A stretch of 32,631 bases of DNA from positions 519,640-552,270 of the forward strand of contig JBBTWE010000001.1 in the NCBI GenBank assembly GCA_038062955.1. The letters are read 5' to 3'. The translations under genes and the position numbers were made by a program. This document shows, piece by piece, positions 2,058 through 6,769 of the stretch. The DNA comes from Patescibacteria group bacterium (lineage in GTDB: Bacteria; Patescibacteriota; Minisyncoccia; Phycocordibacterales; BOKC01). Below the pieces are notes generated by a model. The model was not told the DNA's origin and searched no databases. It worked only from the letters and a program-made list of their open reading frames with translations. The stretch's first letter is position 1, and the number at the start of each line of letters is the position of its first letter.

Positions 2058-2978
2058 CTACTTAAGGTAACGACGGGAAGCAAGATAACTTGAAATCGCC
2101 CCGATAACTATGCCCGACAGAACAATCATTGCTGATATCTCCAGAAAATTCTGCATATAATAATCAAAAGCGTTAAAGGAAATAAAGAATCTATTAGACA
2201 TGTCTGCGAGCCATAATGTTGTCGGAAAGAATATCAGTAAAGTCAAAACTGATGCAAAAAATCCATAAAGAACGCCGCTCACAACGAATGGCCCTCTTAT
2301 GTACGAAGAATCCGCCCCCACAAGTTTCATAACAGAAATTTCATCGCGAGATATGTATATTGCGAGTCTAATTGTATTGAAAGTGATGAGAACCGACATA
2401 ATGACTAACACGGCTGTGATAATAAACCCCAATTTCTCGGAAGAATTTATAATGTTTGAAAGTTTGTCTATGGCGGTTTTGTTTTGAAAGAAATTTATCT
2501 TATCAATAATTGAAGCTCCGGAATTGGAAACAGGTTCTTTGTTTTGAAGAAAATTGGCAACACTCTCGTATTGAGATGGATCTTTGGCTTTAATGTTAAG
2601 CGAACTTCCGAGCGGGTTGTCCCCTAGCTCTTCGAGCGCCTGAAGAATCAATTGGTCGTCTCCGTGTCTTTGTTTAAAATTCACCAGAGCTTCCTCACGA
2701 GAAGTGTAAGAAACATTTTCTACTTCAGAAAGAGCTTCTAATTTATCCTTGAGATTCAAAATTTCCTGTTCCTCGGCCGTCGTTACAAAAGTAACCCTGA
2801 TATCAACTTTATCTTTGAGAGCTTCGAGAGTTGAATTTAATATTGCCGATGAGAAAATAACAGACCCGATAACAAAGAGAGTGACGAGCATCACCAAAAC
2901 AGAAGAGAAAGAAACAAAGCCGTTTCGAAAAAAGTTAAAAAAACCTGATCTGATTATTCTTTTGATATGGACGAACAT
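2058..2978 (-). CDS. ftsX: Cell-division ABC-transporter permease-like protein FtsX
   Basis: 306 aa. One N-terminal TM, an extracytoplasmic loop, then three C-terminal TMs. It starts 7 nt after the ftsE stop, the classic ftsEX pair. Confidence 0.85.
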   Translation of the reverse strand: MFVHIKRIIRSGFFNFFRNGFVSFSSVLVMLVTLFVIGSVIFSSAILNSTLEALKDKVDIRVTFVTTAEEQEILNLKDKLEALSEVENVSYTSREEALVNFKQRHGDDQLILQALEELGDNPLGSSLNIKAKDPSQYESVANFLQNKEPVSNSGASIIDKINFFQNKTAIDKLSNIINSSEKLGFIITAVLVIMSVLITFNTIRLAIYISRDEISVMKLVGADSSYIRGPFVVSGVLYGFFASVLTLLIFFPTTLWLADMSNRFFISFNAFDYYMQNFLEISAMIVLSGIVIGAISSYLASRRYLK

Positions 2979-2985
2979 AATTTTA

Positions 2986-3666
2986 TTATAAAACGTAACG
3001 GCCTTCTTTAGAATCTCTAATAATCTTCCCTTCTTCCATTGAAATCACACGTTTCCCCAAAGAATCGATGACTCCTTTGTTGTGGGTGGTTAGAATAACA
3101 ATCGTTCCGAAATCGTTTATTTTTTTCAAAATCTGAATAATCTCAAAAGTATTCAAAGGGTCCAAGTTCCCTGTCGGTTCATCGGCAATCACGATATCTG
3201 GCTGGTTTACAATCGCTCTTGCAATAGCCACTCTCTGCTTTTCTCCGCCAGAAAGTTCGTTTGGGAAACTCCAAAACTTTTTTCCAAGATCAACCAGTTC
3301 TAAAACATGCGGCACATCTGATTCTATTTCTTTATCGGTCCTACCAGCCGCTTCCATGGCAAAAGACACGTTTTCATAAACGGTCTTATGCGGAAGCAAA
3401 CGAAAATCCTGAAAAATAACTCCAATACGACGGCGATAATAAATCATCTCTCGTTTTTTGAGAGAGTGAATGTCTATGGATTGCAAAAATACTTTCCCTT
3501 TTGTCGGAGCCTCTTCGGCCAAGAGCATTTTAAGAAGTGTGGTTTTACCCGCGCCGGAATGTCCGACAATAGACACGAACTCCGCCGGCTCAATCGAGAG
3601 CGTTATATCGTGGAGGGCCGGTGTGGCGTCTGCATAGACTTTGGAGACACGATCAAAGTAGATCAT
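2986..3666 (-). CDS. ftsE: Cell-division ATP-binding protein FtsE
   Basis: 226 aa ABC ATPase. Walker A GHSGAGKTT, signature LSGGEKQR, Walker B IVIADEPT. Adjacent to ftsX. Confidence 0.92.
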   Translation of the reverse strand: MIYFDRVSKVYADATPALHDITLSIEPAEFVSIVGHSGAGKTTLLKMLLAEEAPTKGKVFLQSIDIHSLKKREMIYYRRRIGVIFQDFRLLPHKTVYENVSFAMEAAGRTDKEIESDVPHVLELVDLGKKFWSFPNELSGGEKQRVAIARAIVNQPDIVIADEPTGNLDPLNTFEIIQILKKINDFGTIVILTTHNKGVIDSLGKRVISMEEGKIIRDSKEGRYVL

Positions 3667-3869: not shown

Positions 3870-4760
3870 TTATAGATCTTTTTCTGCGTCTAAGAATACA
3901 TCTATATTACCATTTAATACACTTTCGACATCACTTGTTTCAACATTTGTTCTGTGGTCTTTTACCATTTTGTACGGATGCATAACGTAAGACCTTATCT
4001 GGCTTCCCCATTCAATATCAGTGGTCTTTGAAACGTACATTTCTCCTTCTTTACTGATTCTTTCTTTCTCCAACGCATGAAAAATTTTCCCACGGAGAAT
4101 TTGCATGGCTTTTTCTTTATTTTGGGCTTGAGAACGCTGATTTTCGGAGTGAGCAGCCAAATTTGTTGGAATATGCACCACCCTCACGGCCGTTTCTCTT
4201 TTGTTAACGTTCTGTCCACCGGGGCCACTTGATCTTGAGAACTCAAGTCTAATTTCTTTGTCCGGAATTTCGAGCTCGGTCACCTTATCAAATTTTGGAA
4301 TAACTTCGACAAGCGAAAAAGAAGTGTGACGGAGTTTCTTCGCGGAGAATGGAGAGACGCGGACCAAACGATGGACCCCGGACTCGTTTTTTAAAGTTCC
4401 ATAAACATTTTTGCCACTTATTTCAATTGTGACGTTTCTAAATCCCCCGTGATCGTTCTGGTGTTCATGCACCAGAGAAACAGACCAGCCCTGCTTTTCT
4501 ATAAATTTGTAATACATTTCCAAAAGCATATGAGAAAAATCTTCAGCATCGTCTCCGCCTGCACCTGAAAAAATACTCATGATAGCATCACCTTTATCGT
4601 ATCTTCCGATGCCATCTTTCTCTAGCTTAAGATCATTGTATTCTTTAACAATTTTTTGGGCATGATCCTTGTTTTGCCAAAACGAGGCGTCAGCCATATC
4701 ACGCTCCAACTCTAATATTCGAGCTAGAATCTCTTCACTTTTGTTTTTCCTTTCTTTCAT
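3870..4760 (-). CDS. prfB: Peptide chain release factor 2 (short form, single ORF)
   Basis: 296 aa. SPF tripeptide (RVSPFS) marks RF2. GGQ motif in SGPGGQNVN. RF-1/PCRF domain order. No upstream frame-0 ORF ending in CTT TGA was found. Confidence 0.93.
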   Translation of the reverse strand: MKERKNKSEEILARILELERDMADASFWQNKDHAQKIVKEYNDLKLEKDGIGRYDKGDAIMSIFSGAGGDDAEDFSHMLLEMYYKFIEKQGWSVSLVHEHQNDHGGFRNVTIEISGKNVYGTLKNESGVHRLVRVSPFSAKKLRHTSFSLVEVIPKFDKVTELEIPDKEIRLEFSRSSGPGGQNVNKRETAVRVVHIPTNLAAHSENQRSQAQNKEKAMQILRGKIFHALEKERISKEGEMYVSKTTDIEWGSQIRSYVMHPYKMVKDHRTNVETSDVESVLNGNIDVFLDAEKDL

Positions 4761-4876
4761 CCCGTACGAAAGTAGGACACGGACTGAATAAATTATCCTT
4801 GCCCTATTTTAAAGTTAAATAATAAATTCAATGTTCCTGATTACATTCCCGCATGGTGTCCGTGACTTCGTACGGG
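4761..4876. mobile_element. MITE-like palindromic insertion E1, abutting the prfB start codon
   Basis: Imperfect terminal inverted repeats cccgtacgaaagtaggacacggac (4761-4784) and gtccgtgacttcgtacggg (4858-4876). Flanked by direct repeat ttcat (4756-4760 and 4878-4882), which is ATGAA on the coding strand. No ORF inside. Confidence 0.5.
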
Positions 4877-4974
4877 ATTCATATTCGCGTCCTGATTATA
4901 TAAGAAGATGTTGGATTTTAAAAATGAGATAAAGGGCATTAACCCTTTGATCCGTCTTCGCTCGCGGATCATGG

Positions 4975-5010
4975 GAATGTAGGTCGATCGGTGATGATCG
5001 ACCTACATTC
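4975..5010. repeat. Perfect 15-bp inverted repeat hairpin
   Basis: gaatgtaggtcgatc (4975-4989), loop ggtgat, gatcgacctacattc (4996-5010). The flanks continue as a degenerate palindrome (cgctcgcgg / ccgctcgc). The string atgatcgaccta recurs near 16470. Confidence 0.8.
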
Positions 5011-5043
5011 TCGCGATGCCGCTCGCTAGCCGGAATAAAAAAA

Positions 5044-5150
5044 GAAGCCACAGGAGGAAGGACTTCATCCCCGAGAGAGATTTCTACGCACCTCGGAGGG
5101 AGGGCGCTTCATCCTGATGTTAGGGGTTTATATTCCTATCCTGTGGCTTC
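5044..5150. other. GC-rich structured non-coding segment closed by a 12-bp helix; family unknown
   Basis: gaagccacagga (5044-5055) pairs perfectly with tcctgtggcttc (5139-5150). There is an inner helix ccgag/ctcgg. On the minus strand the closing helix is followed by a T7 run. No conserved motif of SRP RNA, tmRNA or RNase P RNA was recognised. Confidence 0.4.
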
Positions 5151-5272
5151 TGTCTACATACAATATACAGGAATTTAAAATAAAGAGAAGTCATGATTGT
5201 TCATACAGAACATCAAAGATGATTGAAAATATTTGAAAAACGTAATAAGGTTATAAGGTTGAAAAATAAACT

Positions 5273-5540
5273 GCCGTTGTAGCTCAGTTGGTAGAGCACG
5301 TCATTGGTAAATCAAATTGCCCTTCATTTTGGAAACATAGTGATGAAGCCCGAATTACGGTTAAAGTCCATGCGAGTGGATAAGACCGTGGCGAAAGAGT
5401 CGCCCGAACGACTGACAAGGGACGCTAAATCAAAAGGATATGCGTAAGATACAGTCTAACCCTTTTATAAGTCGGTTGCGACGAAACTAAGGTATATGTG
5501 AATGACGAGGTCTCCGGTTCAATCCCGGACAACGGCTCCA
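5273..5540 (+). tRNA. tRNA-Thr(GGU) interrupted by a 192-nt insert in the anticodon loop; CCA encoded
   Basis: Exon 1 (5273-5308) is GCCGTTG TA GCTC AGTTGGTA GAGC A CGTCA TTGGT. Exon 2 (5501-5540) is AA TGACG AGGTC TCCGG TTCAATC CCGGA CAACGGC T CCA. Joined, they give a canonical cloverleaf with every stem Watson-Crick and anticodon loop TTGGTAA. Confidence 0.85.
5309..5500 (+). ncRNA. Putative group I intron within tRNA-Thr(GGU), inserted between positions 36 and 37
   Basis: The 5' exon ends in U5308 and the insert ends in G5500. A P1-like hairpin GGT|AA-ATCAAA-TTGCC puts a U.G wobble at the 5' junction. Further helices: CTTCAT 5322-5327/ATGAAG 5343-5348, ACGG 5357-5360/CCGT 5386-5389, TCCA 5367-5370/TGGA 5377-5380, GGCGA 5390-5394/TCGCC 5400-5404. 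CTAAGG lies 8 nt before the 3' junction. No ORF inside. Not confirmed by a covariance model. Confidence 0.5.
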
Positions 5541-5602: not shown

Positions 5603-5623
5603 AAAAAAATGCCGATGTAGCTC
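5603..5623 (+). repeat. Orphan duplicate of the 5' end of tRNA-Thr(CGU) plus its upstream A-tract
   Basis: aaaaaaatgccgatgtagctc at 5603-5623 versus aaaaaattgccgatgtagctc at 5722-5742. Only the first 13 nt of the tRNA are duplicated; no cloverleaf follows. Confidence 0.6.
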
Positions 5624-5662
5624 CCCAGTAGTATAAGCTCGAGTACTCGCTTAACTACGGGG
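5623..5662. repeat. 40-nt palindromic unit of the CCCGTAG...CTACGGG family
   Basis: ccccagtag (5623-5631) pairs with ctacgggg (5655-5662). Inner helices are aagc/gctt and cga/tcg. It resembles the nested unit gtcccgtagtgaaagc-ttcg-cttctactacaggac at 19564-19598. Confidence 0.5.
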
Positions 5663-5729
5663 CAGGCAGTAAGACTTTATAACTAAGTCGTCATTTTTTT
5701 GTTCTGATAGAATATGAGAACAAAAAATT

Positions 5730-5802
5730 GCCGATGTAGCTCAGTTAGCAGAGCACCACTTTCGTAAAGTGGGGGTCGACAGTGCAATTCTGTCCATCGG
5801 CT
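5730..5802 (+). tRNA. tRNA-Thr(CGU) with non-canonical D- and T-loops
   Basis: GCCGATG TA GCTC AGTTAGCA GAGC A CCACT TTCGTAA AGTGG GGGTC GACAG TGCAATT CTGTC CATCGGC T. All stems are perfect. The D-loop has AG where GG is expected. The T-loop is TGCAATT, with G at position 55. CCA is not encoded. Confidence 0.85.
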
Positions 5803-6571: not shown

Positions 6572-6617
6572 TTATCAGCTTTATTCAAAATTTAGAATAG
6601 CAGAAATAACCACAAAA

Positions 6618-6655
6618 TGAAAATCTCCAATCGAACATTCGACTGGAGATTTTCA
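6618..6655 (-). terminator. Hairpin terminator between the initiator tRNA and tRNA-Met
   Basis: A 12-bp stem, tgaaaatctcca (6618-6629) / tggagattttca (6644-6655). On the minus strand it is followed by ttttgtgg. Confidence 0.6.
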
Positions 6656-6698
6656 TTTACCCGTACACCTATTTATCTTAGGTATTAGGGTTTACTTG

Positions 6699-6769
6699 TT
6701 GCGGGGCCCGGATGTGCGCCGGGGCCTCAAGGTTATGAGCCTTGCGAGCTACTGCTACTCAACCCCGCG
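6699..6769 (-). tRNA. Initiator-type tRNA-fMet(CAU) with non-canonical D- and T-loops
   Basis: Reverse complement: CGCGGGG TT GAGT AGCAGTA GCTC G CAAGG CTCATAA CCTTG AGGC CCCGG CGCACAT CCGGG CCCCGCA A. It has the C1xA72 mismatch and the A11:U24 pair that mark bacterial initiators, and it aligns arm by arm with E. coli tRNA-fMet. The T-loop is CGCACAT and the D-loop lacks GG. Only two G:C pairs lie next to the anticodon loop. Confidence 0.72.

Follow-up and report, generated by a model that had tools for sequence, protein, structure and literature searches.

A compact group I-type intron beside the anticodon of a patescibacterial tRNA-Thr(GGU) gene, and its relatives in bacteria and viruses

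In a 32,631-nt stretch of a low-GC bacterial chromosome (the window), which carries pyrG, ftsE/ftsX, a short prfB, gatA and ligA, a tRNA-Thr gene at 5273-5540 is divided into two halves by an insert of 192 nt. This locus raises the question of whether the gene is functional and, if so, what kind of element divides it. The locus is very probably a functional tRNA-Thr(GGU) gene of a member of the Patescibacteria (Paceibacteria-like) with a compact group I intron between U36 and A37. The split is beyond chance: more than 115 other genomes share it, junctions included, and compensatory changes occur in exons and intron alike.

ARAGORN in intron mode, a run proposed in the initial annotation of this DNA, recovered tRNA-Thr(ggt) at 5273-5540 with a 192-nt intron at 5309-5500, located at position 36/37 ('ttggt-Intron-aatga'). 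In this assignment, the 5' exon (5273-5308, + strand, as are all elements of the gene and intron) supplies the 5' strand of the acceptor stem, the D arm, the 5' strand of the anticodon stem, and the anticodon loop through G34 G35 U36 (5306-5308). The 3' exon (5501-5540), which is also supported by covariation, supplies A37 and A38, the 3' strand of the anticodon stem, the variable loop, the T arm, the 3' strand of the acceptor stem, the discriminator, and an encoded CCA at 5538-5540. When the insert was removed in silico, ARAGORN returned a normal 76-nt tRNA-Thr(GGU) with encoded CCA; the initial annotation was thus right that the two halves 5273-5308 and 5501-5540 make a perfect tRNA. Because the intron and the second exon both begin with AA, three boundary choices give an identical mature tRNA, and only one of them has U (U5308) as the last base of the 5' exon and G (G5500) as the last base of the intron. 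This unique choice had been pointed out earlier, and the sequence agrees. The insert, which is delimited by ARAGORN, covariation, RNAalifold and the family model described below, has no coding potential, as was also proposed: the largest open reading frame (ORF) touching it is 49 aa. Folding of the pre-tRNA gave z = -3.2 versus shuffles. Neither default ARAGORN, which reported four tRNAs in the window, nor the Rfam tRNA model, which reported five, made a call at 5273-5540.

Homologues were collected with two patterns. A pattern of the D arm, anticodon arm and P1 retrieved six loci, five with a homologous intron in tRNA-Thr(GGU) and one (L002) with a classical-looking intron at the same site. 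A core pattern (GAACGACTGACAA N15-45 ATACAGTCT) gave at least 120 matches in species-representative genomes, and those listed were almost all from metagenome-assembled genomes (MAGs) of Patescibacteria/candidate phyla radiation (CPR), with a few other labels including the cultured Niastella populi CCTCC AB 208238 (L072); the taxonomic labels of MAGs are as deposited. Complete genomes (CP011209.1, CP174359.1, OY970216.1 and OY970354.1) are also among the carriers. In 115 of the 115 resolvable copies, tRNA-Thr(GGU) was split as ...GGU/intron...G/AA. The hosts Arg(gcg), His(gtg), Pro and Leu named by ARAGORN for some copies were discarded after junction inspection as boundary mis-assignments of tRNA-Thr(GGU).

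We derived a fold of the intron by hand and tested it on a structure-blind MAFFT alignment of 63 pre-tRNAs (window included), in which the intron measures 158-243 nt with a median of 192. Standard pairs occupied 96.0% of the alignment cells, versus 77.6% after column shuffles and 34-42% when the 3' partners were slid, and compensatory changes were found at 41 of the 66 pairs (covariation score 0.50 vs 0.15). RNAalifold, which was blind to the hand-derived fold, returned the cloverleaf together with P1, P2, P4, P5, P6, P7, P8 and P9. The exons were conserved in the same way: the acceptor and anticodon stems were 100% paired with compensatory changes, and the range across acceptor, anticodon and T stems was 99.7-100%, with many such changes.

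At the 5' splice site, P1 (5306-5321) is formed by exon GGU and intron AA (5306-5310) with an internal guide, UUGCC (5317-5321), and U5308.G5319 is the wobble pair at the junction. This hairpin had been predicted from the window alone and is borne out by the alignment, where the U.G pair and both G-C pairs are kept in 63/63 homologues, U is at position -1 in all 63, and the intron-side pairs covary (AU/GU; AU37/GC21). The following hairpin P2 (5325-5342; CAUUUUG / CAUAGUG with one U.U mismatch) is capped by a GAAA tetraloop L2 (5332-5335) and showed compensatory changes at all seven pairs. An extended P2 (CUUCAU/AUGAAG) was considered and dropped, as it is present in the window only and CAUUUUG/CAUAGUG covaries instead.

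The core is organized around P3 (5349-5421), a helix of 3 bp between CCC 5349-5351 and GGG 5419-5421 that makes the core pseudoknot with P7. P3 was 100% paired in the 63 sequences, with a CG-to-UA change at each of its three pairs. After J3/4 (GAAUU), P4 (5357-5389; ACGGU 5357-5361 / ACCGU 5385-5389) encloses J4/5 (UAAA), P5 and J5/4 (AAG). The hairpin P5 (5366-5371 / 5376-5381, loop GCGA) had compensatory changes at 5/6 pairs. P4 was invariant in the tRNA set and covaried when viral members were added (AU30/UA19; UA32/GC8/AU3), in an alignment that is model-fitted, so that its P4 counts lean towards the structure. P6 (5390-5404; GGCGA / UCGCC) was 94.6% paired with compensatory changes at 4/5 pairs. 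P7 (5410-5456; GACUG 5410-5414 with CAGUC 5452-5456), recovered by RNAalifold, aligns with the P7 and J8/7 of a tRNA-Tyr group I intron and is flanked by J6/7 (CGAAC), J7/3 (ACAA) and J8/7 (AAGAUA, 5446-5451). By sequence fit, the invariant G5410-C5456 is the candidate guanosine-binding pair, with a bulged C5409 and A5408-U5457 on its 5' side and A5411-U5455 next to it. P8 (5422-5445; ACGC / GCGU) was 98% paired with compensatory changes at 4/4 pairs, and its interior, CUAAAUC...GAUAUG, resembles the 11-nt GAAA-tetraloop receptor. A long P8 with such a receptor-like sequence (CUAAR...UAUG) was present in 23 of the 29 members with a GAAA L2 and in none of the 33 with GYAA or GCGA. This tertiary covariation between L2 and P8 implies a self-organizing fold.

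At the 3' end, reading of the alignment revealed P9.0 (5459-5499; A5459-U5499 and C5460-G5498), in which the nucleotides after CUA pair with the last two before omegaG. It was 97.6% paired (GC31/AU29/GU3 and UA35/CG18/UG7), compared with 0-50% when the partner was slid. P9.0 lies just 5' of omegaG and encloses P9 (CCUU 5461-5464 / AAGG 5489-5492; compensatory changes at 4/5 pairs). The last intron nucleotide, omegaG (5500), is G in 63/63 aligned homologues. The initial annotation had also drawn attention to CUAAGG near the 3' end. The string is indeed present at 5487-5492, but it does not stand as a meaningful motif: the family does not conserve it, and so it is of no diagnostic use. As a hallmark of subgroup IC3 it was therefore rejected, being only the 3' strand of P9 here, whereas in Azoarcus a similar string is the P8 receptor.

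Is the insert a group I intron in the strict sense? All helices of the topology P3-P4-P5-P5'-P4'-P6-P6'-P7-P3'-P8-P8'-P7' are present in order, and P3, P5, P6 and P8 covary. Among the features of IC3, the intron has the S element AAGGGAUAGUCC and the L2-P8 pair; its R element diverges (CGAACGACUGACAA vs the classical GUAGAGACUA), P3 has 3 bp instead of approximately 6, and no L9-P5 pair was found. From the family core we constructed a covariance model, R1 (154 positions, 32 pairs). R1 scored family members at 120-149 bits and matched the window once. Its next-best matches in 0.78 Mb, without exception down to approximately 11 bits, were full-length matches inside other tRNA group I introns: tRNA-Tyr introns at 24.2 and 23 bits (full length, E ~1e-4), a tRNA-Ser-like gene at 18.6 bits, and several tRNA-Asp introns at 11-16.5 bits, of which the one at 16.5 bits is scored by RF00028 (Intron_gpI) at 56.3 bits. 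In the alignment of R1 to the tRNA-Tyr intron, P4, P6, P7, J8/7 AAGAUA and P9 were in register. Furthermore, the strings GAUAACGGUGAAA...AAUACCGUGG and AAGAUAUAGUCC recur in the hand-curated seeds Mba143.Tyr.4Ug and Pgr210.Thr.2Ug (Williams 2020).

Several observations weigh against the group I assignment. The check with RF00028 suggested in the initial annotation turned out negative: neither the 651 nt scanned nor the intron alone (211 nt, where E = 10 corresponds to approximately 11 bits) gave a match at the gathering threshold (50 bits) or even at E<=10, and viral copies of the family gave no match to RF00028 either. P3 has only 3 bp, and J6/7 is CGAAC versus GUAGA in the classical bacterial tRNA introns. 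P7 is invariant in all members and is without covariation support, and the invariance of P7, J6/7 and J8/7 was imposed in part by the pattern used to collect homologues. R1 cross-matches other group I introns at low scores (10-24 bits), and its E-values are only roughly calibrated. RF00028 did recognize the classical tRNA introns L002, L063, L081 and L127 at 52-65 bits (L002, 64.7 bits). According to Williams 2020 (bioRxiv 10.1101/2020.01.27.920355), the RF00028 seeds include no bacterial intron. Because RF00028 at E<=10 also missed the tRNA-Tyr introns, which are in the group I seed set of that study, we read its negative result as a limit of the model; the group I identity therefore rests on comparative structure and the cross-hits of the family model. 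Judged from these sequence comparisons, 5309-5500 is a true group I intron, compact and divergent in type. The central proposal of the initial annotation, a small group I-type intron just 3' of the anticodon, is upheld by P1-P9, P9.0, the U.G wobble, omegaG and a P7 pair of the guanosine-binding type, and its remark that the element is near the lower size limit of the class is fair, given 192 nt versus 205 nt for the 'compact' Azoarcus intron and family members down to 158 nt.

The anatomy of the intron, its conservation and covariation, and the intact exons strongly suggest that it is catalytic and splices autonomously. The established group I pathway supplies the steps of the following model. 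Upon folding of the transcript, the guide UUGCC would pair with exon GGU and set the U36.G wobble at the 5' splice site in P1, while the core would be assembled from the P3-P8 pseudoknot and the P4-P6 stack, and L2 (GAAA) would probably dock on the receptor-like P8 in the manner of Azoarcus. A free guanosine bound at G5410-C5456 in P7 would then attack after U36, P9.0 would bring omegaG (G5500) into the same pocket, and the 3'-OH of U36 would attack after G5500, so that the exons are ligated to restore the anticodon loop UUGGUAA.

The genomic setting of the gene was examined in relatives of the host. The nearest genome by LigA (70% identity) is a Candidatus Paceibacter MAG. Among the 80 loci listed as LigA relatives, most are from Patescibacteria, and the rest are distant (36-47% identity) and from other phyla. 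In the relatives, ligA is followed by a conserved tRNA cluster of Met, Met, Asp, Thr(GGU) and Thr(CGU). In the orthologue comparison recommended in the initial annotation, the single Thr(GGU) of this cluster was free of an intron in 27 loci, and in three (L146, L149 and L166) it contained the family intron; split and intact copies of Thr(GGU) did not occur together in any fetched locus. This conserved slot indicates that the split gene in the window is the ortholog of the single-copy Thr(GGU). The presence of the intron is patchy among close relatives. Neighbouring tRNA genes of these relatives sporadically carry other group I introns: tRNA-Asp(GUC) with approximately 206-220 nt in L126, L127, L165, L169, L170, L178 and L186, tRNA-Met(CAU) with 222-278 nt in L150, L160 and L194, and tRNA-Leu(CAA) with 273 nt in L164. 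The Asp and Met tRNA genes of the window itself are intact.

With this information, other explanations of the split can be weighed. The most serious of them, which we nevertheless consider unlikely, is that the intron derives from group I and has lost autonomous catalysis, its core being stripped (3-bp P3, short P5, no peripheral domains) so that it needs a protein cofactor or splices inefficiently. The 3-bp P3, a length below that of the 205-nt Azoarcus intron, and a core that RF00028 does not recognize all fit this idea, and many group I introns require protein cofactors, e.g., bI3 (PMC2813881). However, the elements of the catalytic core are all retained and under selection, namely the As of J4/5, J8/7 AAGAUA, the G-C pair and bulge of P7, P9.0 and omegaG, and the covariation of L2 with P8 points to a fold that organizes itself. 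The occurrence of the family in very reduced genomes and in phage genes on viral contigs speaks weakly against a dedicated cofactor; no co-occurring protein was noticed, and none was looked for.

It is much less probable that the locus is a tRNA-Thr(GGU) pseudogene with an inert insertion and that the real gene is elsewhere in the genome. The visible part of the genome is 32.6 kb and default tRNA finders do not call the gene, as such a reading would have it; yet the exons are flawless, their helices stay 100% paired through many compensatory changes across 63 lineages, and the insertion always comes with U-1 and omegaG, exactly at 36/37. Because of this exon covariation, the orthologous slot that the gene shares with the single intronless Thr(GGU) of relatives, and the lack of any fetched locus in which split and intact copies coexist, we reject the pseudogene. 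The chance is smaller still, close to negligible, that the insert is a protein-spliced bulge-helix-bulge tRNA intron of the archaeal or eukaryal kind, or a ribozyme of another class such as the hammerhead. Its site is one nucleotide off the canonical 37/38 and thus superficially similar, and a sub-threshold Hammerhead_3 match was obtained at 5449-5492 (15.4 bits versus a gathering threshold of 48.5; E 1-3). However, the alignment-supported P1-P9 fold puts the junctions in P1 and beside P9.0, not in a bulge-helix-bulge, and the Hammerhead_3 match was dropped, as it corresponds to the variable interior of P9, which is not conserved in the family. Bacteria are not known to encode a tRNA splicing endonuclease. 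A functional tRNA-Thr(GGU) gene with a group I intron is thus the explanation that we retain.

Outside cellular genomes, the core pattern matched 42 viral contigs of IMG/VR, with R1 scores of 54-128 bits over the full model, and none of the copies on these contigs is in a tRNA gene. In L229 (6187-8079) and L245, three copies within 1.5 kb interrupt one ORF (R1 97-127 bits), and the first junction, GCU/AAACAAAUUGGC, has its P1 designed like that of the tRNA. Neither PHROGs nor Pfam gave a family for the exons of the viral host genes, and blastn of the window region and of the viral three-intron gene against annotated GenBank phages gave no match. In L221, a copy at 3138-3284 (R1 111 bits) has an HNH_3 homing-endonuclease-like ORF on the opposite strand (2531-3040) immediately upstream of it, and a 303-aa ORF without family match downstream.

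Two further copies come from MAGs. The smallest member (L052, 5890-6121; R1 101 bits), on a 386-kb contig labelled as a Gammaproteobacteria MAG, has 158 nt, and its P9 is wholly deleted, leaving P9.0 as a GC/GC mini-hairpin. In an Oscillospiraceae MAG (L019, 5145-7947), a family copy outside any tRNA (6583-6732, minus strand; R1 80.6 bits) is located between a 328-aa ORF and a reverse-transcriptase (RVT_1) ORF, and this may be a retroelement context, e.g., a diversity-generating retroelement.

The surroundings of the split gene in the window also contain features of their own. The tRNA-Thr(CGU) gene that begins at 5730 has its first 13 nt repeated at 5610-5624, together with a preceding A-run. 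Where the remainder of a tRNA would come next, the element at 5610-5700 has a hairpin (CCCCAGUAG...CUACGGGG) and a T-run; it does not fold significantly (z = -1.65). L126, the closest relative, has no such element upstream of its orthologous gene. The element may be a remnant of the rearrangement that left the pair Thr(GGU)-Thr(CGU) inverted in comparison with most relatives. On the minus strand, 6699-6769 encodes a tRNA with anticodon CAU and a C1xA72 mismatch atop the acceptor stem (Rfam 45.7 bits, not reported by ARAGORN), which is probably the initiator tRNA-fMet of the Met-Met-Asp cluster. The intergenic region of approximately 500 nt between prfB and tRNA-Thr(GGU) contains, at 4759-5151, three GC-rich long inverted repeats, 4759-4770/4867-4878 (12 nt, perfect), 4968-4989/4996-5017 (22 nt, 86%) and 5043-5055/5139-5151 (13 nt, perfect), and an Rfam scan of 4740-5275 found no family at E<=5. 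The release-factor gene prfB itself (3870-4760, minus strand; PCRF and RF-1 domains) encodes only 296 aa, and its protein starts with MKERKNKSEEIL..., where the typical N-terminal domain of RF1/RF2 would already be over. A hidden upstream exon, intron or frameshift segment of prfB was sought in every frame and none was found; the protein simply starts late.

How new is this intron? It reveals no new kind of element. The initial annotation, which knew of no described example for this tRNA and lineage, went too far in its claim of novelty. Williams 2020 (bioRxiv 10.1101/2020.01.27.920355) lists 'Thr.5Ug' (tRNA-Thr, 36/37) among 21 tRNA/site classes; that study used GenBank assemblies, and its seed names point to CPR MAGs. 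Moreover, Lui et al. (2021) noted group I introns in CPR tRNAs as an obstacle to the detection of these tRNAs. Because of these two reports, neither the kind of element nor its site or lineage is new. The compact family itself may be undescribed, with its divergent J6/7, 3-bp P3, median length of 192 nt, invisibility to RF00028 and presence in phage genes. These introns form a large family without ORFs. In Patescibacteria and some other bacteria they have one fixed site, in tRNA-Thr(GGU), and in phage protein genes they have multiple sites. We tentatively raise the possibility, which we hold to be the less probable case, that they constitute a distinct, uncatalogued subclass of compact group I introns (3-bp P3, no peripheral domains, invisible to RF00028, median 192 nt). 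The cellular tRNA-Thr copies may have been gained and lost among close relatives without a homing endonuclease ORF, and the viral copy in L221 has an HNH neighbour. If true, exchange between phages and ultra-small bacteria would be one possible explanation of the shared family.

Should the family members splice themselves, they would rank with the smallest natural group I introns known to do so. The family represents a naturally minimized group I core for which comparative data are abundant; one of its hosts (Niastella populi, L072) is in culture, and phage genes contain relatives of it. There is also a practical side. Default tRNA finders and Rfam miss the gene, and carrier genomes therefore appear to be without tRNA-Thr(GGU). 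This apparent absence, the same annotation problem as that noted by Lui et al. (2021), can distort inferences on the completeness and codon usage of Patescibacteria; a family-specific covariance model such as R1 recovers the intron at 120-149 bits.

Among known introns, those in phage protein genes (review PMC3984707) have a counterpart in the copies of this family on 42 viral contigs outside tRNA genes, whereas the window copy, which is free of an endonuclease ORF, interrupts a cellular tRNA gene. The best matches of R1 outside the family are the CPR introns of classes 'Tyr.4Ug' and 'Thr.2Ug' (seeds Mba143 and Pgr210, loci L099 and L026; full-length matches at 24.2 and 23 bits). They have in common with the window intron GAUAACGGUGAAA...AAUACCGUGG (P4), AAGAUAUAGUC (J8/7-P7'), the order of elements and the failure of RF00028 to find them at E<=10, but they differ in tRNA and site, in a 6-bp P3, in the classical GUAGAGACUA R element and in a larger P6.

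The four classical cases of bacterial tRNA introns are all IC3. Of these, the Azoarcus tRNA-Ile intron is inserted at the same position, 36/37, directly 3' of the third anticodon base; its 5' exon also ends with U paired to G in P1, and it is likewise compact and free of ORFs, with P2-P9 and P9.0, a GAAA L2 and an 11-nt-type receptor in P8 (seed Aol6.Ile2.5Ug). The two differ in length (205 nt in Azoarcus versus 192 nt in the window), in P3 (approximately 6 bp versus 3 bp) and in GUAGA-GACUA versus CGAAC-GACUG; in addition, P5 of the window intron is a short hairpin without a receptor, and no docking of an L9 GAAA onto a P5 receptor is evident. The window intron splits its tRNA-Thr gene after anticodon-loop position 5 and has U-1 and omegaG, as the class 'Thr.5Ug' is defined. 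The 'Thr.5Ug' seed Rba53 and the intron of L002 differ from it in a classical IC3 core (GUAGAGACYA ... AAGGGAURGUCC), a 6-bp P3 and a long P9, and they are recognized by RF00028 (L002, 64.7 bits), unlike the window family. Nevertheless, Rba53 and L002 share with the window intron the host gene tRNA-Thr(GGU), the splice site and the P1 design ggU/A...UGcc, and the P1 loop of L002, AAAUAAAAUUGCC, is nearly identical to that of the window, AAAUCAAAUUGCC.

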